Shown: positions 1 through 27,280, numbered from the stretch's first letter. The stretch: DNA of 27,280 bases from a virus (IMGVR_UViG_3300030035_000142:1-27280); one strand, 5' to 3'. Numbers and translations: made by a program. Notes: generated from the letters alone by a model not told the origin.

Positions 1-1188
1 ATGGCAGGCATCATCAAACGCAACAACAAATGGGTGGCCGTCTTCCGCTCCCTGGACGGCAAAGAGCTTCGGAAAACCACCGGCATCGACGTGGTTCCCA
101 AGGCGCTTCTTCCGGGAGCCAATAAGAAATCAATCATGTCCCAGAATGAAGCCCGGGCGCGGCTGGTAGCCCAGGAGATGGAGAAAGAAGCCCGGTACGG
201 GGTTTTCGACCTGGACAAGGTGAAGGCCATTGCCGGGGACCAGGCCGGCGTGCTGAAAGCCACCATGAACGGCATGACGGTAACCCGGTTCCTCTTTGAC
301 TGGCTGGACGGGAGGAAAAACAAGAAGCGGGCCTATGAGCGGGACGGCATGGCCGTCCGCAGGCTTCTGGCGTTCCTGGGGGACCGGCGGAATATGCCGC
401 TGGCCGCCCTGAATAAAGGCATGGCGAAGGATTTTGTAGAAACGGAATTGGAGCGCGTTTCCGCCGGAACCGTCATCCGCTATGTGTCCACGCTGTCCAT
501 CGCGTTCAATGTCGCTGTAGACCGGGAGATCCTTTCCCGGAATCCGTTCCGGGGCGTCATGCCTTCCCGGGCGGACCACCAGGCGGAAAAGCAGCTGCGC
601 GGCGCGTTCACGATGGAGGAAGTGAACACCATCATTGAACGGTTCCCGGATGAATGGCCGGATCTGGTGCGGGTGTGCCTCTATACCGGAGGCCAGCGCC
701 TCGGAGACCTGGCGACGCTGAAATGGGACCAGATTGACCTGAAGAACTCCTTCCTGTTCATGACCACGCAGAAGAGCCGGCGCCGCATGAACAAGCCGAT
801 CATCCAGCCCTTGAAAGAGGTTCTGGAAAGGCGTCTGGTCAACCGGGTGAACGATTACGTGTTTCCCCTGGCCGCGCTTCGCCATGCCCATGCCGGAGGT
901 CGTTCGGACAAGCTTTCCACGGAGTTCACGACATTGTTGAAAACGTACGGGATCATCAGAGAGATGCCCGGGGAAATGAGAGGCGACCGGCACCGGCTTT
1001 CGGAAAAGAGCTTCCACAGCCTACGGGCGACCGCCGTGACCGTCCTGCGCCTGGCCGGGGTGTCCCCGGATTTGTGCCGTTTCATCGTCGGCCACGACTC
1101 CGAAGAGATTGAACGGGTTTATTTCCGCCCGGATTCGTCGGACGTTCAGGAGGCCATGAGCAAGATTGCCGTCGGCTTGGCCCGTTAG
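1..1188 (+). CDS. int: Tyrosine recombinase / phage integrase
   Basis: 395-aa ORF. N-terminal arm/SAM-like region (NNKWVAVFRSLDGKELRKTTG). Catalytic-domain signatures GQRLGDLATLKW (Arg), HSLRATAVT (HxxR) and VGHDSEEIERVYFRP (His...Tyr). Ends in TAG. Confidence 0.9.
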   Translation: MAGIIKRNNKWVAVFRSLDGKELRKTTGIDVVPKALLPGANKKSIMSQNEARARLVAQEMEKEARYGVFDLDKVKAIAGDQAGVLKATMNGMTVTRFLFDWLDGRKNKKRAYERDGMAVRRLLAFLGDRRNMPLAALNKGMAKDFVETELERVSAGTVIRYVSTLSIAFNVAVDREILSRNPFRGVMPSRADHQAEKQLRGAFTMEEVNTIIERFPDEWPDLVRVCLYTGGQRLGDLATLKWDQIDLKNSFLFMTTQKSRRRMNKPIIQPLKEVLERRLVNRVNDYVFPLAALRHAHAGGRSDKLSTEFTTLLKTYGIIREMPGEMRGDRHRLSEKSFHSLRATAVTVLRLAGVSPDLCRFIVGHDSEEIERVYFRPDSSDVQEAMSKIAVGLAR

Positions 1189-10662: not shown

Positions 10663-11067
10663 TTATTTAATAGTGAAATGCTTGAAAAACGCCACCGCGG
10701 CGGGGGCGGTAATGACGAACTCCGGGTAGTCGCGGTCCGTAAAAATCCTGCGCCCGCCCTGTGGATTGACGGCTTCCACGGCCAGATACACCGCCTCCAC
10801 TCCCACAATGGGGTCATCCTCATTGACAGGATCCGGGTAATACCAATCCTGTGTTGCCCACACCTGGACGGCCTGCCAATCCTCACCCAATCCCACCAGC
10901 GCGGCCACTACGGCGGCCATGGCCGGGGTCTGGTTCGCCGGAATCTCGTCCTGCGTATAGCGGTCTATGCGGGTGTACCCTTCCTCGTCCTGGTAAATGG
11001 CCGCCAGGCCGAATTCATCCCATTGACCGGGTTTCGGGAACTGTATTTGTATCTCGGAATTATTCAT
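10663..11067 (-). CDS. Hypothetical acidic protein downstream of the fibre gene (fibre-assembly candidate by position only)
   Basis: 134-aa ORF. Its ATG overlaps the fibre stop (ATGA). No motif recognised. Confidence 0.45.
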
Positions 11068-13004
11068 GATTCTATCGGCACGTTAATATCTTCAAAAGCG
11101 GCGGTTGCCTCGGATTCAACGGCATTCGTTCCTATTGCGTTCAACCCGTAAAAGAGGGGGTTCACATTGCCCGGCTGGTAGTAGGCATATTCTCCGGGCC
11201 CCGCATAAACGGAAGCCGTGCCGCTGGTGGTGTTGATCACATCCGTCACCCACCTGGAAATGCCGACGCCGGTCTCAAAATTGGAGACGCCCCGGCAGGT
11301 GGCGATCTTGAACAGGTTGTTGGTCTGTGCCCCCGTGACCAGCAGCCAGAGGCCTCCCAGGTTTTCATAAACGCTGCTGTTGGCAACCGTCTGCTGCTGG
11401 TAAATAATCTTGCACACCGTCCACGGGACGGGCTCGTTTTGCGTCGCCGGGATAAAGCTGGTCGTCGTCTTGACCTGCCATCCATCGGCGGACGTCAGCG
11501 CATAAATTTCACGCACGCGCACCGTATAGCCGTTGCGCGCCGTATCGCGCACGTTGTCAAAGGTGATGTCCAGAATCTCCCCGGAATTAAATGCCAGGTC
11601 ATTGCCCGGAATAATCGTGTAGGAGTCGGTGGTAAGGTCTGTCCTGATTGTTTTCGCCCCCCGTCCGATGCCCATCGTTATCTTCGCCGCGGCCGTGGCC
11701 CGCCAGACAAATGAAAAGCCGGCCCAGGAAGAATAATTCCATTGGGAACTGGGGCCTTCAAAAGGGGCCTGAATAGTCGTGTGAGCGCCCGCGGAAATTC
11801 CTATGCGGGCCATCTGGTAGGGAACCGTTTTAGTCACCGTTGCCGTGCCGGTAGTTGTCAGCGTGTCCGTATTCAGGAAAGCCGCCGCCGTATAAGCATT
11901 GGCTGCGCCTCCCATGCCCGCGGCATACAGGCGGTTGACGCCGGATTCATTGGTCGGCGCTCCCACGGCCAGCGGGATGTTGACGCCTCCATTGGCGTTG
12001 ATGGCGCTTGAAAACGTGGATGTCCCCGCGCAGTTGAAGCTGGCGCCCTGGCTGATATTCAGGATTCCGGTCTCTACCATGAATGTCCCTCTCAGCCATC
12101 CGCCCGACCGAAGATCGACCGACTGGTAAAACCGGGTGATCCCGTAAATCTGGTTCAGCGTGCCGGCGCTTCCGCTGCCGTCCGGGTTGTTGACCACCAG
12201 AGGCCCGTTCACGGTAGCTGATTCGGCTGTCAGGGCTCCCCCGATATTCACATCGCCAACGTTGGATGTCAGAGTACCAGGATCTCCCTTTTCCCCTTGC
12301 GGCCCCTGGGGGCCTGCCGGACCTTCCGGCCCCTGGGGGCCCTCCGGGCCTTGAGGCCCCGCCGGTCCTGTATCTCCCTTCGGTCCCTGCTCCCCGGTTT
12401 CGCCCTGCGGCCCGCGTTCCCCGGTTTCGCCGCGTGGACCTTGCGGCCCTTCGGGTCCGGTTTCACCCCGTTCACCCTGCGGGCCTGACGGTCCCTGAGG
12501 ACCAACATCCCCGCGGGGAATCGTGAAATTGAGCAGATAGGATCCTGATTCAGTTCCCTTGACGGCTTCCGCGTTGGCGGGCGTCCCCGGTTCCCCGGTG
12601 GTGACCTGACCCACGGACAGATTAAAATTCTCGGCGTACTTTTTGGCCTGCTCCGCGTACCAGGCGGCGCTGGACGCGTTATCAAGCATGATTTGCACGC
12701 AGCCGCTTCCTTCCGGCAGCTGCACGACGACCGCGCCCGCCACGGCCTGCTGTTCGTCCGGCAAGTCCGGCGTCACCCGGCCCGAAGAAACAAAGCATCC
12801 GTAAAGGAACGGGCTTTCCTCGTTTCCGTCGTCCATGAAGACGTCATAGGACCACATGCCCGCAGGCACCGAAGCCCAGGAAATTACGCCATTGCCCTCG
12901 TCATCGCGTGAAAAGCCGAACTCCGTCACGCCCGTCTTGAGACGGACAGCGCCGCGCAGGGTGACGCCGCTCATATCGACGGGATCGCCCTGAAAATCCA
13001 CCAC
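11064..13004 (-). CDS. Collagen-like repeat tail fibre protein (646 aa from GTG; possible AGG start at 13070)
   Basis: About 26 uninterrupted G-X-Y triplets ([76 protein letters not shown]), flanked by a beta-rich N-domain and a ~400-aa C-terminal domain. Confidence 0.8.
12276..12512 (-). repeat. Collagen triple-helix (G-X-Y)n coding repeat
   Basis: Read directly from the translation of residues ~165-243 of the fibre ORF. Confidence 0.9.
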
Positions 13005-13784: not shown

Positions 13785-13982
13785 TTAGTAGATAATGGCT
13801 GCCTTGCCGTCGGCTTCCAGTTTGTCGGCGAGTTCTTTCGTAACACGGATTTCCGCCCCTTTCAAGAACGTTGAACGCCCTATGTGGGTTTTCCTGGCAA
13901 GAAAACGGATTTTCGTGTTAATGACGGCGGCCTGCTCCGTCTTTTTGTCCGGTTCGGTATTGGCGGCAGTTGCTTTGCTCAT
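13785..13982 (-). CDS. Small hypothetical protein (65 aa)
   Basis: ATG start overlapping the upstream stop (ATGA). Lys/Ala-rich. Confidence 0.45.
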   Translation of the reverse strand: MSKATAANTEPDKKTEQAAVINTKIRFLARKTHIGRSTFLKGAEIRVTKELADKLEADGKAAIIY

Positions 13983-14245
13983 TTGATGTCAACAAGGTTG
14001 AGGGTTTGCAGAGCTTCCGCGACGGGCGCGGGAAGTTCCGGAGTATCGGTTTTCATGGAGAGGCTGATGACCAGCCCTCCGTCCAGTTCGGCGCGGGTGC
14101 GAATGACCCGCACGGCCTTCTTGTCAGTTGTTTTCTTCTTTTCGTCCGGTGCGGACGGCGTTTTGCCGGCGGTTTCGGAAGATTCGTCCGGCTTCGGGAC
14201 GTTCTTCCGCACGGCCTTCTTGTCAGTTGTTGATGCTTTGTTCAT
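13979..14245 (-). CDS. Small Lys-rich hypothetical protein (88 aa) with an internal duplication
   Basis: ATG start. TTDKKAVR occurs twice, encoded by an exact 24-nt direct repeat (14109-14132 and 14208-14231). Confidence 0.45.
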   Translation of the reverse strand: MNKASTTDKKAVRKNVPKPDESSETAGKTPSAPDEKKKTTDKKAVRVIRTRAELDGGLVISLSMKTDTPELPAPVAEALQTLNLVDIK

Positions 14246-14753
14246 AGAATTCTGGCTTGGTTCTCATGTTAATATTAACCGGGACACGGTAATCCACGGT
14301 CAAAACGTTCATTTGCCGCTTCTCGCCGTCGATGACGGCGGAAGAGGAAAAACGGCCTTTGATTTTCGGTTTCATCATCGCAGGCGCGGCAAAGGGGAAA
14401 GGGTTCCAGTTCCACAGGGCTTCTTCAATTTCGTCGCCTACCGCCCGCAGGTAGTAGTCGGGCGTCAGGCATTCCGGGGGGAACAGGGCCGCGTTGTGGT
14501 AGACGGCCGCAATGATGAAATACTGCCGCCACATGGTCGGCGCTTCCGTCTGCCCGTGCCCGTCCTGGTATTCGTCCGCGTCTCCCGGACACACCAGCAC
14601 CACGCCGTTGTTGCCCATCGCCGACATGATGATGTCATTGGCGGCGTACTGGGGGTCAAAGGGCCGCTCAAAGATATGGCAGTCCAATGTTCCGAGGCTC
14701 TGCAGGCGCTCAATGATGCGCCGGCACATGGTTTGGTCAAGGGAGGGGATCAT
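14223..14753 (-). CDS. Head-tail joining / tail completion-type hypothetical protein (176 aa)
   Basis: I start at ATG 14753 (MIPSLDQTMCRR...), which overlaps the upstream stop as ATGA. The longer 211-aa form is Arg/Pro-rich. Function is positional. Confidence 0.5.
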   Translation of the reverse strand: MIPSLDQTMCRRIIERLQSLGTLDCHIFERPFDPQYAANDIIMSAMGNNGVVLVCPGDADEYQDGHGQTEAPTMWRQYFIIAAVYHNAALFPPECLTPDYYLRAVGDEIEEALWNWNPFPFAAPAMMKPKIKGRFSSSAVIDGEKRQMNVLTVDYRVPVNINMRTKPEFYEQSINN

Positions 14754-15415
14754 GATTCGTTTCCGATGTTGGCGAGGTAGGTTTCCGCGGCGCGCTGCGC
14801 CATCCGGTCCAGCGTCGGGAGAATCCCCGGCGTGGGCGGGATTGTGACTTCGCGGCACAGCACGTAGAGGACGTCCCCGGTTCTGGCGCCTTTGCTGAAC
14901 AGCTTCCGGGCCGCTTTCTTTCCGGTGGACGACTGCGCCGTCTTGAGGATGAGGACTCCGGTCACATTGCCGTTGCGTCCTCCGTTTCTGGACGGGATGA
15001 ATTGTAAATCGTCTTTGCGGAACCCGGCGCTGTAAATGCTCCGGGCCCCTCCATGCCCGCGCGGGGCGTTGATGGTGGGAATCGCGAGGTTTTGGATCGG
15101 CTGTCCCGTGATTTCCGAGGTGCGCCCGGTGGGCCGGAGCGGGCCGCCCAGATAGCCCTGCGTGCCGATCCAGTGCAGGCCGATGCCGCGCCAGGCGATG
15201 GAGACGCTGACGCCCTCGGCGGTTTCTTCCATGGAGGTGGCGTCCGCCGCGCCATCGTAGTAGTCCTTGCCCTGCTGGCGCAGGGTTTCCTGAATAAGCA
15301 GGCTGAGGGCGACGCCCGCTTTGCGGATGGCTGTTTTGTGCCGGGCCGCGGACGGCTCCATCTCGGCAAACGCCCGGTCAATCGCGGCCTGGTCGATATG
15401 GACGGTTACAGCCAT
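14750..15415 (-). CDS. Virion morphogenesis / neck-type hypothetical protein (221 aa)
   Basis: The ATG start overlaps the end of the upstream gene by 10 nt (15406-15415). Function is positional (between the head and tail modules). Confidence 0.5.
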   Translation of the reverse strand: MAVTVHIDQAAIDRAFAEMEPSAARHKTAIRKAGVALSLLIQETLRQQGKDYYDGAADATSMEETAEGVSVSIAWRGIGLHWIGTQGYLGGPLRPTGRTSEITGQPIQNLAIPTINAPRGHGGARSIYSAGFRKDDLQFIPSRNGGRNGNVTGVLILKTAQSSTGKKAARKLFSKGARTGDVLYVLCREVTIPPTPGILPTLDRMAQRAAETYLANIGNES

Positions 15416-22429: not shown

Positions 22430-22996
22430 TTAAGCGTGGAGTTTGCCGGCGATGGTTTCCAGCGCGGTTTTCTCGTCTTCCTGCAGCTGGGCCAGCTGCT
22501 CGGGGTCCAGGGTGATTTTCCGTTCCAGCGGCGCGCCGGGAACGCCGGCGACATCCTGACGGACCCGGTCGCCGAATTTTTCCGGCGCGAATCGGGCGGC
22601 GACTTTCAGCCGGGTTTCAATGGCGAGCTTCTTCGCGGCGACGGAGGCGGAGCCGCATTCCGGGTCCAAGGCGACTTTCGCGGCTTCGTCGGCCAGCTCC
22701 TGACAGGCGTCAATCATAGCTTCCGACTGCGCTTCCCGCGCGCGTTGAATGATTTTACAAAACTCTTCCCGCTCATGTCTCCATCTCCAGACAGTTAAAA
22801 CATCCGGCATGTGGTCATCGGAGCAGATGGATTTCATGGTTTCCCCGTTGGCAAGACGGGTGGCTATCTCGGCGGCCAGTTCCTCGGTGTAGAGGCTCGG
22901 CCGCCCCGGTTTTCTTTTGGTGGTAGGTTTCTTTTTCCTTCCGGGACGATAAGATTTTTTTAGTAGCGCGTCAAAACAAGATTTTTTCTCTTGCAT
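22430..22996 (-). CDS. terS: Terminase small subunit
   Basis: I start at ATG 22996 (MQEKKSCF...). GRPSLYTEELAAEIATRLANGETMKSICSDDHMPDVLTVWRWRHEREEFCKIIQRAREAQSEAM matches the widespread HTH-type TerS N-domain. The 270-aa long form is antisense to the neighbouring + gene and looks hydrophobic and junk-like. Confidence 0.7.
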   Translation of the reverse strand: MQEKKSCFDALLKKSYRPGRKKKPTTKRKPGRPSLYTEELAAEIATRLANGETMKSICSDDHMPDVLTVWRWRHEREEFCKIIQRAREAQSEAMIDACQELADEAAKVALDPECGSASVAAKKLAIETRLKVAARFAPEKFGDRVRQDVAGVPGAPLERKITLDPEQLAQLQEDEKTALETIAGKLHA

Positions 22997-23019
22997 CACT
23001 AAACATTGTTTAGTATATT
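22991..23019 (+). promoter_or_regulatory. Putative promoter of the plus-strand small-gene operon, with a palindromic operator in the spacer
   Basis: TTGCAT (22991-22996), a 17-nt spacer, then TATATT (23014-23019). The spacer contains the perfect 7-1-7 palindrome CTAAACA-T-TGTTTAG (22999-23013). The -10 overlaps a copy of the TATATTGA 8-mer seen at the tRNA promoter. Confidence 0.4.
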
Positions 23020-23089
23020 GATCTTGTTGATGGGAGGTAAGGGACCAACCGGAGACACAATCCAAAACCAAACCAGAAAGACTAAAACA

Positions 23090-23347
23090 ATGAACGCTGA
23101 TAAAACTTACAAAATCCGAGAAATATTCACCTTTCACCGCCATGAAATAGCTATTGCCGGAGAAGTGGTGAAAAACTATGACGAAGAAGGAAGAACCTAT
23201 AATTTTTATTGCCCGGTGCGGGAAGTCCACGGCGTAAGGCATGGATTTGTCAGCGGCAATGTTCCGGAAGAAGTAAAAGACTTTGTTGATGTGAGAGACA
23301 TCCTTGAAAAAGCGGAAGAATACGATGTGGTTGTAGATTGGGACTAA
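23090..23347 (+). CDS. Small acidic hypothetical protein (85 aa)
   Basis: I start at ATG 23090, preceded by the A-rich leader AACCAAACCAGAAAGACTAAAACA. The upstream TTG-initiated extension is hydrophobic and junk-like. AT-rich gene. Confidence 0.55.
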   Translation: MNADKTYKIREIFTFHRHEIAIAGEVVKNYDEEGRTYNFYCPVREVHGVRHGFVSGNVPEEVKDFVDVRDILEKAEEYDVVVDWD

Positions 23348-23376
23348 AATAAAACCAAATCAGAAAGAACAAGACA

Positions 23377-23745
23377 ATGACTAAAAACGAATTAACAGAA
23401 ATTCTCAAACTGCACGAAATGTGGCTGAACGAGGAAGAAGGCGGCGCTCAGGCCAAATTTGAAGACCTCGACCTCAGGGGGCTCGACTTTAGGGGTGCTA
23501 ACTTAATCAAGGCTGACTTTAAGGACGCCGACTGTTCCGGAGTTGATTTCACAGGGGCCGACTTGAGATGTGCCGATTTCACCGGGGCCAATCTAACCGG
23601 GACCGATTTCTCCGGGTGCAATCTGAAATGGGCCAATTTTTACAAGGCCAATCTAACCGGAGCCAGATTTAACGGGGCTATCCTGGAATGCGCCGACTTT
23701 AGATGGGCCCGCGGGATTGTCGATCTGACCGTAGGGAAAGCTTAA
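23377..23745 (+). CDS. Pentapeptide-repeat protein
   Basis: About 18 consecutive A(D/N)LXX-type pentapeptides (DLRGLDFRGANLIKADFKDADCSGVDFTGADLRCADFTGANLTGTDFSGCNLKWANFYKANLTGARFNGAILECADF). Confidence 0.85.
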   Translation: MTKNELTEILKLHEMWLNEEEGGAQAKFEDLDLRGLDFRGANLIKADFKDADCSGVDFTGADLRCADFTGANLTGTDFSGCNLKWANFYKANLTGARFNGAILECADFRWARGIVDLTVGKA

Positions 23746-23760
23746 ACACAAACCAAACAC

Positions 23761-24069
23761 ATGAAAAAATATATTATCCCTCAAAAGTTTAGAGATACGT
23801 CTTTATCAGATATCTCCTCTACCAAGTATGACCGCATCATTGAATTTCCGGAAGGTCACAAATTTGCGGTTGTCCTGGCTGCGTACTACATCAAAGATGT
23901 CAACGAAGAACCATGCTATTATACCTACCAAACACAAGACGAAGCGCTCAATGCAATAGCAAAATACTGGAATGATTATTGCTACGAAGTAATTGACGAC
24001 GAAGGTTATCAGCGTTGGGATATCATGAGATGTGGCCCTGTTGGGAGGCGATTTGAGCAAATCAAATAA
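23761..24069 (+). CDS. Small acidic hypothetical protein (102 aa)
   Basis: ATG with the A-rich leader AAACACAAACCAAACAC. No motif recognised. Confidence 0.55.
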   Translation: MKKYIIPQKFRDTSLSDISSTKYDRIIEFPEGHKFAVVLAAYYIKDVNEEPCYYTYQTQDEALNAIAKYWNDYCYEVIDDEGYQRWDIMRCGPVGRRFEQIK

Positions 24070-24083
24070 TCGGAAGCTCAAAT

Positions 24084-24284
24084 ATGAATCCTCAAGAATT
24101 TGTTGATTGGGTCCAGTCCAGATACCATTTGCGATCCAAAACTTCTGCGGTCAAAAAGGCTGCGCAGATGTTGCGGGTGACAGAAATGGCTGTATGGCAA
24201 TGGTTGGGCGGGTCCAGAAAAACGAGTCCGTCGATGGAGCTGTTGATGGAGCTAATCACCCGTCACGGATTGCCGGACGAATAG
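24084..24284 (+). CDS. Small HTH DNA-binding protein (Cro/YdaS/Aca-like)
   Basis: 66 aa. VKKAAQMLRVTEMAVWQWLGG fits a helix-turn-helix of the '..lgVs..avsqW..g' type. It is the last gene of the plus-strand operon. Confidence 0.55.
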   Translation: MNPQEFVDWVQSRYHLRSKTSAVKKAAQMLRVTEMAVWQWLGGSRKTSPSMELLMELITRHGLPDE

Positions 24285-24287
24285 ACC

Positions 24288-24321
24288 TATACGAGATTCC
24301 AGGGTATACGAGATTCCAGGG
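24288..24321. repeat. Exact 2 x 17-nt tandem repeat TATACGAGATTCCAGGG
   Basis: Read directly from the sequence. It fills nearly the whole 37-nt gap between the convergent stop codons at 24282-24284 (+) and 24322-24324 (-). Confidence 0.9.
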
Positions 24322-26341: not shown

Positions 26342-27280
26342 TCAAAAAAGCGTCAGTTGGGGGTTGTTTTTCATGATTCTGCCGAGCAGAACCCGGAATG
26401 CAGTTGCCGCCACAGCAGGTACTTGCCCATTGCCAAGGGCTTTAATGCGGTCCACTCTAGCGGCCACCCCATGAGCCACTCGACCCACGTCGGGTTCAGC
26501 TGACCACCATTCCCCGCAGTCATTTGTCTCCGCTCGTCCGGCGTGATAATTCCCTTGGTTTCCAGGTCTTTCATTTTCTGAAAACTCCCCGTCCCCCCGC
26601 ACATCCCCTTGGTGCGGGGTGTTGGAAACTGTGAAACCATAGTTATCAATTTCTTCCCTGTTGCCCGGTTGATTTCCTTGCCGCCGCAACTGGCGGTTGG
26701 AGTAGGAAACATCCGGACAAATTCGGACAATCCCTGTTGCCTGCTGTTTGGGCCACGTCTCTTGTGATCCGAGGCAAGGGGGCTTGGGAACATCTCTACG
26801 AACTCGTATGGATTGGGCGGCTTGTTGCCCTCCCGAAACTTCTTGCTCCGATTCTTCCCGGAAGCGGTTGGAGTTCCGATCCATACACCTCTTTTCAAAG
26901 AGGCTTTCCGGGAATTCGACCCTCCGTCGAGACCTTTCGTTGTCGCTGTTGGCCACATCATCCCCGGCATCCAGCCTGTTGTCGCTACATCCATCAGGCT
27001 CTTGGGTCCCCGTGAATGGCTCCCCTTGTTGGGGGCGTTGCAAGCCGTTGGCGTGGGGATCATGTGCAAGTATCCAGATGCGCTTTCTGACGTGCGGGGC
27101 TCCCACATCGTCCGCTCCCAGCACAAGCCATTCCGCATCGTACCCGATTTCGGCAAGATCACCGAGGACTCTGGCAAGTCCTCGTCCCACAAGCAAAGGT
27201 GAGTTTTCCAGGAATGCGAATTTCGGTCGTACCTCATTGATAATTCGGTGCATTTCCCGCCAGAGCCCGGAGCGGGCGCC
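26342..27280 (-). CDS. DNA cytosine-5 methyltransferase, 5' end outside the window (frame A; a second fully open frame overlaps it)
   Basis: Frame A carries LWREMHRIINEVRPKFAFLENSP (motif IV-VI region, ENV-like), GYDAEWLVLGADDVGAPHVRKRIWILA (motif VIII-like) and the C-terminal EPDVGRVAHGVAARVDRIKALGNGQVPAVA (motif X-like). It is open to the window edge. Confidence 0.7.
   Translation of the reverse strand, partial: GARSGLWREMHRIINEVRPKFAFLENSPLLVGRGLARVLGDLAEIGYDAEWLVLGADDVGAPHVRKRIWILAHDPHANGLQRPQQGEPFTGTQEPDGCSDNRLDAGDDVANSDNERSRRRVEFPESLFEKRCMDRNSNRFREESEQEVSGGQQAAQSIRVRRDVPKPPCLGSQETWPKQQATGIVRICPDVSYSNRQLRRQGNQPGNREEIDNYGFTVSNTPHQGDVRGDGEFSENERPGNQGNYHAGRAETNDCGEWWSAEPDVGRVAHGVAARVDRIKALGNGQVPAVAATAFRVLLGRIMKNNPQLTLF

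Follow-up and report, generated by a model that had tools for sequence, protein, structure and literature searches.

Anti-CRISPR (acr) operons of phages, such as acrIF1-aca1 of Pseudomonas phage JBD30 and acrIF8-aca2 of Pectobacterium phage ZF40, consist of one to three small, unrelated and swappable genes followed by a gene for a small helix-turn-helix (HTH) regulator, the anti-CRISPR-associated (Aca) protein; an inverted repeat that differs by regulator family or variant overlaps the promoter, the regulator may be fused to other domains, and such operons occur in several phage backbones (PMC9410906, PMC13551039, PMC6765145). Aca proteins bind the inverted repeats in acr promoters and damp the strong early promoter (PMC6765145, PMC9410906, PMC13551039). 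The morons of lambdoid and other temperate phages, in the definition of Juhala and Hendrix, are likewise accessory units: autonomous, on the opposite strand between conserved modules, deviant in base composition and variable in content among close relatives. The locus analysed here occupies positions 22991-24284 of the viral DNA IMGVR_UViG_3300030035_000142:1-27280 (27,280 nucleotides, the whole of which is referred to as the window). It consists of a promoter-like site with a palindromic spacer, three genes for small acidic proteins and a terminal HTH gene, and it belongs to a family of cassettes from phages of Akkermansia muciniphila in which the layout of acr-aca operons recurs: the cargo genes are shuffled, and the palindrome covaries with the HTH protein.

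The cassette and its promoter-leader chassis

The block was originally predicted to be an AT-rich plus-strand operon, and every element of that prediction was recovered at 22991-24284, i.e. a promoter TTGCAT-17-TATATT with a palindromic spacer, followed by genes for an 85-aa protein, a 122-aa pentapeptide-repeat protein (PRP), a 102-aa protein and a 66-aa HTH protein. The first three are acidic, as judged from their isoelectric points (pI). The four open reading frames (ORFs) are contiguous on the plus strand, separated by gaps of 13-29 nt, with the HTH gene last; small genes and an HTH gene, the latter assigned at the level of its family, are thus combined in one short operon within a prophage, as in acr-aca loci. 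The palindrome extends over 17 nt, and the 15-mer initially reported is its core. The features of the block are the following:

22991-22996, plus strand: -35-like hexamer TTGCAT, with its final three bases complementary to the start codon of terS
22997-23013: 17-nt spacer between the hexamers, read from the sequence
22998-23014, no strand assigned: putative operator, the perfect 17-nt palindrome ACTAAACATTGTTTAGT, i.e. ACTAAACA-T-TGTTTAGT, which fills the 17-bp spacer
23014-23019, plus strand: -10-like hexamer TATATT, read from the sequence
23024-23042, plus strand: conserved leader start TTGTTGATGGGAGGTAAGG (consensus of the relatives TTGTTGACGGGAGGTAAGG)
23064-23093, plus strand: A-rich leader repeat, copy 1, ending in the ATG of ORF1
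23090-23347, plus strand: ORF1, 85 aa, pI 4.9, acidic, soluble, beta-rich, no Pfam domain
23351-23380, plus strand: A-rich leader repeat, copy 2, ending in the ATG of PRP
23377-23745, plus strand: PRP, 122 aa, pI 4.7, net charge about -6, Pfam PF00805
23761-24069, plus strand: ORF3, 102 aa, pI 5.1, soluble
24084-24284, plus strand: HTH protein, 66 aa, basic, pI 9.4, putative autorepressor
24288-24321, no strand assigned: tandem repeat of the 17-mer TATACGAGATTCCAGGG in two perfect copies, lying between the stop codons of the HTH and DnaC genes

The window cassette and its relatives have a common chassis about 75-90 nt upstream of the first cargo gene: TTGNNN is followed, after a 17-nt spacer, by a -10-like hexamer, then by the 19-mer TTGTTGACGGGAGGTAAGG and an A-rich leader. 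The 19-mer is found without mismatch in 30 IMG/VR stretches and in 57 gut-metagenome stretches. With ≤3 mismatches allowed, a search of all collected loci and the window gave 155 occurrences of the promoter-leader unit, 94 of them distinct, on viral and gut-metagenome contigs, and the units are almost always closed by an HTH gene of one small family. This leader start of ~19 nt is common to all operator classes and phage backbones, and works as a search probe for the cassettes. The -35 position of the 94 related units reads TTGCNN, TTGAAT or TTGACA, and the -10 position TATATT, TAAATT, TAGATT or TAACTT.

Judged on the window only, the palindrome would be suggestive: three perfect palindromes with 8-bp arms are present in the whole window, with 1.0 expected, and 0.04 are expected within the block. 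Its significance derives from the exact placement in the promoter spacer, together with the conservation and covariation observed in the relatives. A spacer of 17 bp is the optimal distance between -35 and -10 elements, which argues for repression and against activation of the MerR type, and the simplest reading of an HTH protein acting in such a spacer would be negative autoregulation. An inverted repeat that overlaps the promoter and appears to be conserved together with the regulator is a further point of agreement with acr-aca operons.

The A-rich leaders of the genes had been described as near-identical. This holds for ORF1 and PRP, whose leaders agree at 26 of 30 nt (87%); the leader of ORF3 is 71% alike and that of the HTH gene is unlike the others. 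The 30-nt repeat shared by ORF1 and PRP has no other mismatch-free occurrence in the window. In one relative (L012), which lacks ORF1, the promoter leader runs straight into a PRP-type leader copy. The leader repeats delimit the segment by which phages with and without ORF1 differ, which fits recombination between the repeats. Since Aca1 and Aca2 bind hairpins in 5' untranslated regions, the leader was also considered as an HTH-specific RNA site. This was rejected: the predicted RNA fold yields only a weak 7-pair consensus hairpin (-3.8 kcal/mol), and the element is the same in all operator classes. Cassettes of the operator class palD (see below) have a separate GC-rich hairpin with a T-run behind it (GGGGCGG-caaaga-CCGCCCC-TTTT) between the cargo gene cargoE and the HTH gene (8150-8120 in L033, about 5215-5255 in L024). 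This hairpin, which is missing from the window cassette, may lower the expression of the HTH gene by attenuation relative to that of the cargo.

Operator classes and the HTH family

Across the units the promoter spacer is always palindromic, and seven palindrome classes are found at the same position. The class agrees with the recognition helix of the HTH protein in 59 of 60 units, a count that does not amount to sixty independent tests because the units share descent. The classes are:

palA: ACTAAACAWTGTTTAGT; helix VTEM..(W/Y)(Q/H)W; 27 units
palD: ACTATAAATTTTATAGT; helix V(S/T)(D/E)...WKW; 17 units
palB and palB': ACTATC-N5-GATAGT and a degenerate form; helix ..WRW; 5 units
palC: ATCATTGAATGAT; helix VKEITVWEW; 5 units
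palG: ACTATTCAWTGAATAGT; helix V(R/E)EIT.WQW; 2 units and 1 exception
palE: GAATACCTAGTATTC; helix VTKDGIYKW; 2 units
palF: GTGTACTAGGTGCAC; helix VTKWLVYRW; 1 unit

The palindrome of the window is present in every locus with a VTEM helix (27 units), and is replaced by the six other palindromes where the helix differs. This agreement between class and helix supports an Aca-like autorepressor that would act on the promoter operator. The same cargo gene can stand behind several classes, as observed for cargoE, ORF1 (behind A, C and G) and PRP, and the HTH-operator pairing has consequently been kept through recombination. Likewise, three loci (L060-L062) encode a single HTH protein that is 53% identical overall and yet has the same VTEM helix, and it is flanked by two palA promoters. 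One of these promoters precedes a 291-aa cargo gene and the HTH gene; the other, downstream of the HTH gene, precedes c93 or c121, with c100. Two tandem cassettes that differ in operator class and HTH type occur in L011/L005 (3300005460_000112) and in L012 (3300045988_178680), the first comprising a 94-aa protein and a 196-aa fusion of an acidic domain to an HTH, the second being of the window type. The presence of two differing classes in one phage suggests that the HTH-operator pairs are orthogonal within a single genome.

A comparable arrangement is known from the heteroimmune repressor-operator sets of lambdoid phages, where the members of one HTH family have diverged in specificity and each recognises a palindromic operator of its own, placed alike in the promoter. 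Unlike in those sets, the pair described here would control an accessory cassette rather than the lysis-lysogeny switch; each promoter has a single operator, and a divergent partner repressor is lacking. A Cro/CI-type lysis-lysogeny switch was considered for the window and rejected, as the operator site is present there in a single copy and the divergent neighbour is terS.

Taken alone, the HTH protein of the window gives only sub-threshold Pfam matches (YdaS, P22_Cro and HTH_23, E 0.016-0.04). The fold class is secured at the level of the family, members of which match HTH_23, YdaS, HTH_3 and P22_Cro; the closest relatives of solved structure are N15 Cro (E 0.02) and MqsA. Seven close homologues, all unannotated metagenome proteins, were found among 5.8 billion protein clusters, and an exhaustive profile search of 1.84 billion proteins returned 46 cluster representatives. 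As the broad alignment of the family was too diverse to serve as a query for locus searches, a sub-alignment was used. Family members occur as stand-alone proteins, as C-terminal fusions to acidic domains (191-196 aa), as N-terminal fusions to arrays of HTH-like repeats (~430 aa), and in three or four tandem copies. Unusual members directly follow cargoE behind palD promoters in L024/L025 (311 aa) and L051-L059 (434 aa); these contain three or four tandem HTH units, or an HTH fused to about eight repeats of the type LLGK.PD..IA..FG.

Cargo proteins and distribution among phages

Behind the chassis, cargo genes of about 15 credible families occur in many different combinations and orders. Nearly all of these families are without known relatives, and matches to known toxin or defence families were likewise not obtained. 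By number of units, cargoE is the most frequent (46), followed by ORF1 (14), PRP (10, and 5 more in which the predicted ORF continues into the following gene), c100 (9), c291 (7), ORF3 and c93 (6 each), and c135 and c94 (5 each); c113, c121, c74, c263 and others have lower counts. The original prediction had been able to name no family for the window proteins apart from the pentapeptide fold, and searches of Pfam, PHROGs, PADLOC and NCBIfam gave the same picture, returning the pentapeptide domain and the sub-threshold HTH matches. Among the 5.8 billion protein clusters, ORF1 has only 17 close homologues and ORF3 only four (74-91% identity), all unannotated, and the protein alignment of ORF1 is conserved. 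Sequence searches of the Protein Data Bank (PDB) with ORF1, ORF3 and cargoE gave no match. Structure prediction combined with Foldseek, suggested with the original prediction as a way to place these proteins, was informative in part. The AlphaFold2 model of ORF1 is confident (pLDDT, the predicted local distance difference test, 91.7) and mostly beta, and is without a match in PDB and BFVD (best E 0.12); the model of ORF3 is unreliable (pLDDT 60.7) and its Foldseek output is noise.

PRP is clearly a pentapeptide-repeat protein (PF00805, E 1.5e-38, 130.4 bits against a cut-off of 20.2). It has an N-terminal helix and matches phrog_7713 (E 1e-21), for which no function is assigned there. Proteins of the Qnr, MfpA and McbG kind, which are built from the same repeat, protect gyrase, and phages are also known to encode acidic peptides that inhibit gyrase as DNA mimics (PMC10886550). 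PRP resembles MfpA, Qnr, AlbG and McbG in its repeat domain and net negative charge, and its matches among PDB sequences are generic pentapeptide-repeat proteins, including those of the Qnr, MfpA and AlbG types. Unlike them, it is about two thirds their length, is phage-encoded within an accessory cassette, and scores far below the family cut-offs (34.7 bits against 240 for Qnr, 28.9 against 360 for MfpA), so that it falls outside these NCBIfam equivalogs.

Ocr (T7 gene 0.3) and ArdA offer a second comparison, being small, very acidic, soluble proteins of phages or mobile elements that are expressed early from a strong promoter. The most common cargo of the relatives, cargoE (107 aa, pI 4.05), is likewise small and very acidic. 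Unlike Ocr and ArdA, the window proteins are only moderately acidic (pI 4.7-5.1), and there is no sequence similarity, nor any similarity of fold for ORF1, the sole cargo protein with a usable model. The lone hint of a relationship to a counter-defence protein comes from the 291-aa cargo of a relative (c291), with a sub-threshold match to ArdC-N (E 0.013; 16 bits, the cut-off being 22.6); ArdC is an anti-restriction factor. No hydrophobic or membrane segment was found in any of the four window proteins, and membrane proteins for superinfection exclusion were for this reason rejected as candidates.

The host was identified as A. muciniphila by a terL scan, in which a 283-kb contig of a metagenome-assembled genome was found to carry a prophage with a terL 95-96% identical to that of the window. 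A scan of 185,579 species representatives with the HTH profile gave no relative, and blastn of the block DNA against 50,697 GenBank phage records gave no match. IMG/VR contains about twenty near-identical backbones (terL 93-99%), and each of them has, in the slot from terS to the replication genes, a plus-strand block that encodes an HTH protein of the window's family together with differing other genes. In 18 of 18 catalogued related loci the slot from terS to the HTH gene is occupied, and individual genes as well as whole cassettes vary. The four genes of the window recur together in IMG/VR 3300005460_000112, separated from terS by a second, different cassette; one relative has PRP-ORF3-HTH without ORF1, some have ORF1, cargoE and HTH, and some only a 94-aa protein and a 196-aa protein with the HTH as its C-terminus. 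The cassettes extend to other phages as well. The full ORF1-cargoE-HTH cassette, of class palC, is present in a separate lineage of ~83-kb contigs, and ORF1 with the promoter and leader but without the HTH gene is found in co-directional gene arrays of other ~50-kb phage contigs; ORF1 also lies within co-directional early/replication arrays beside an SNF2 helicase.

Nearly all relatives (including L012, L033, L061 and L032) have TATACGAGATTCCAGGG in tandem, from one copy to five or more, where the block ends on the right, independent of the last cassette gene and of the adjoining replication module. The two copies in the window compare with 0.07 expected by chance, and form neither a hairpin nor a terminator; these repeats might serve as iterons, as the site of an activator or as a boundary for recombination. 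The sharing of both the promoter-leader chassis and this boundary repeat by all operator classes sets the cassettes apart from acr-aca operons, and we know of no equivalent in acr loci.

The window as a whole is a prophage, with an integrase (1-1188, plus strand), a Mu-like portal, tail and head genes, terL and an Sf6-type terS. To the left of the block lie the tail and head genes, portal, terL and terS, on the minus strand, and to the right, also on the minus strand, genes for a DnaC-like loader, a replication initiator and a C5 methyltransferase. The divergent neighbour just outside the cassette is:

22430-22996, minus strand: terS, Sf6-type (PF20901 Sf6_terminase, E 4e-29; phrog_1482, E 3e-33)

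The block had been described as the only one on the plus strand of this phage, which is incorrect in view of the integrase. At 13884-14858, overlapping ORFs of 298 aa (plus) and 211 aa (minus) are without family hits and ambiguous in GC content at third codon positions (GC3), so that a further plus-strand gene inside the phage is possible. The C5 cytosine DNA methyltransferase (26342-27253, minus strand, PF00145, E 7.5e-12) belongs to the early/replication operon, and such phage enzymes are a conventional route to evade restriction. A 646-aa protein (11064-13004, minus strand) matches collagen-like tail-fibre families (phrog_5073, E 1.5e-23, and many others). Downstream of the cassette in the ~83-kb lineage (L007/L026), and at 3346-7201 of L001, there are genes for a sulfotransferase, a 3'-phosphoadenosine 5'-phosphosulfate (PAPS) reductase, a CysN-like GTPase and an adenosine 5'-phosphosulfate (APS) kinase. 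These look like a phage-borne set for sulfate activation and sulfotransfer, a notable feature given that the host degrades mucin.

Competing explanations and implications

In combination, the 94 units and the 59 concordant HTH-operator pairs make a regulatory architecture of the acr-aca type probable. In the proposed mechanism, a sigma-70-type promoter would drive a short operon whose products, small and soluble proteins that are mostly acidic, are interchangeable, until a dimer of the HTH protein binds the 17-bp palindrome in the optimal spacer and blocks RNA polymerase; this negative feedback would give a burst of cargo expression followed by self-shutdown. Cargo genes would be gained and lost by recombination, in part via the repeated A-rich leaders, with cognate HTH-operator pairs staying joined. 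The cargo proteins would most likely be stoichiometric inhibitors of host proteins, active in counter-defence or host takeover, and PRP is a candidate DNA mimic. This assignment of the cargo to anti-defence or takeover is tentative, an analogy drawn from proteins that are small, acidic, soluble, rapidly shuffled and horizontally mobile, and from one fold with a precedent in DNA mimicry. The combined reading, of a modular self-regulated cassette among A. muciniphila phages with cargo for counter-defence or host takeover, we consider about evenly balanced.

Several observations weigh against it. The -35-like hexamer agrees with TTGACA at just three of six positions, on account of which a consensus promoter scan missed the site, and promoters of Akkermansia are uncharacterised. 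No intrinsic terminator was found in the window after the HTH gene, and the unit converges on the DnaC gene. The HTH protein matches no solved Aca: none was among the profile hits in the PDB sequence set, up to E 10 with profile A3 or E 1 with profile A5. This set presumably contains the solved entries of Aca1, Aca2 and Aca10, and the comparison covers the Aca families with a solved structure; Pfam gives generic HTH families only. From its architecture the HTH protein may thus act in an Aca-like manner, while lying outside the described Aca families that were compared. No validated anti-CRISPR or homologue stands upstream of it, and no match to an anti-defence or Acr protein was obtained for ORF1, PRP, ORF3 or 12 cargo families of the relatives in Pfam, PHROGs, PADLOC, NCBIfam, PDB sequences or with Foldseek. 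The architecture claimed in the original prediction is borne out, and the anti-CRISPR or anti-defence function attached to it remains putative, as do repression and inhibition. In three units (L089 and the metagenome units u67 and u84) the cassette is followed by HicA/HicB pairs (HicA, Pfam E 3e-10), and in relatives by a sulfotransferase further downstream; the presence of HicAB in the same slot indicates that the slot is not reserved for counter-defence. In the literature searched, no report of a phage pentapeptide-repeat protein in anti-defence was found. The shared descent of the units, noted above, counts on the same side.

The rival that survives best, which we nevertheless regard as unlikely, is a lysogenic-conversion moron, expressed from the resident prophage to the benefit of host or prophage, with the HTH protein setting a low steady level. 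The benefit could lie in the exclusion of other phages, or in PRP shielding gyrase or another DNA enzyme in the way Qnr, MfpA and McbG protect gyrase (PMC10886550). Like a moron, the block is an independent opposite-strand unit between conserved modules with its own promoter-like site, and it deviates in base composition and codon usage: its GC content is 0.41-0.53 against 0.58-0.68 in the flanks, and its GC3 0.41-0.60 against 0.62-0.80 in core phage genes. Content differs between otherwise near-identical phages, the HicAB pairs in the same slot are typical accessory or defence cargo of prophages, and negative autoregulation would suit constant low expression. Unlike a moron, the unit has a dedicated autoregulator and operator and no terminator detected in the window, its slot is filled, with differing content, in all 18 related loci catalogued, and it also occurs in possibly non-temperate phages. 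The separate ~83-kb lineage and the ~50-kb contigs that carry it have a different gene content, and the early/replication arrays in which ORF1 lies next to an SNF2 helicase are atypical of morons expressed in lysogeny. Most superinfection-exclusion proteins have membrane segments and those of the cassette have none, and PRP scores far under the Qnr and MfpA cut-offs.

A developmental module is very unlikely. Here the HTH protein would be a Cro-like or late regulator, the palindrome would control entry into late packaging, and the small proteins would modulate timing. Late regulators often sit between replication genes and terS, i.e. in the slot occupied here, and the HTH protein has the weak similarity to P22_Cro and N15 Cro given above. 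In the window 1-2 nt separate the operator from the start codon of terS, and the operator is overlapped by what can be read from the sequence as a possible divergent promoter on the minus strand, TTACCT-17-TATACT; terS also abuts the cassette promoter in several relatives. The co-regulation of terS that had been proposed from this adjacency finds no support as a conserved feature, however: most relatives have an HNH-like gene or a second cassette between terS and the operator with its promoter, at a distance of 0.9-1.5 kb. The HNH-like gene encodes a basic, Cys-rich zinc-finger protein of 171 aa (phrog_1271, E 6e-11) between terS and the palindrome promoter, and is carried by many relatives (L013, L016-L021, L033 and L050). 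It is absent from the window, and for this reason the operator abuts the start codon there; the several relatives in which terS abuts the promoter are likewise without it. The adjacency in the window looks like the outcome of a deletion, and a local effect on terS in this particular phage is possible. The window has a single operator site, whose position in the 17-bp spacer implies repression of the cassette promoter and not activation of terS, the second promoter copy in L060-L062 lies downstream of the HTH gene, and the HTH cassette occurs in unrelated phage backbones.

A toxin-antitoxin-like addiction module, with the HTH protein as autoregulating antitoxin and one upstream protein as toxin, is scarcely credible. 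Toxin-first order occurs in HigBA, HicAB and MqsRA, operator autoregulation is typical of type II systems, and the HTH protein weakly hits models for antitoxins or repressors of the YdaS, MqsA and spr1629 types. These hits are far under the family cut-offs, however. No toxin family in Pfam, PADLOC or NCBIfam was matched by the acidic ORF1, PRP or ORF3, the same HTH may follow one, two or three unrelated cargo genes, and the true HicAB pairs are separate extra modules downstream.

The preferred reading, a self-regulated cassette with cargo for counter-defence or host takeover, can be carried further, to a platform for phage-borne cassette exchange, which we hold to be quite unlikely. In such a platform the chassis would be fixed, crossovers would take place in the leader repeats, and the 17-nt tandem repeat would form the far boundary, so that counter-defence genes are swapped among unrelated Akkermansia phages under at least seven orthogonal HTH-operator specificities. 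A resident prophage with the same HTH type could plausibly silence an incoming cassette, and heteroimmunity would then act as a diversifying pressure. If this were true, the platform would include the first pentapeptide-repeat DNA mimic in anti-defence, together with several new inhibitor folds, including that of ORF1.

An autorepressed accessory or anti-defence operon is in itself a known kind of system. New are the HTH family, all cargo families except PRP, and the chassis that the cassettes share, whose operators show at least seven specificities recognisable in the sequence. The host clade is also new in this respect, as the literature searched contains no description of this Akkermansia phage locus and nothing comparable in that clade. 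A. muciniphila is a medically important gut commensal whose conflict with phages is almost unstudied; its strain YL44 harbours two prophages that can be induced (PMC8008629). If the preferred reading is true, the HTH proteins would constitute a new family of Aca-like regulators, and their specificities, together with the 19-nt leader motif, would provide an anchor for discovery by guilt by association; the about 15 small families, among them PRP and the confidently modelled but structurally unmatched ORF1, would be candidate inhibitors of Akkermansia defence or of other host proteins, and the natural orthogonal repressor-operator pairs would be usable as genetic tools in Verrucomicrobiota. If the cargo instead consists of lysogenic-conversion genes, the locus would show how prophages vary the traits of their host.

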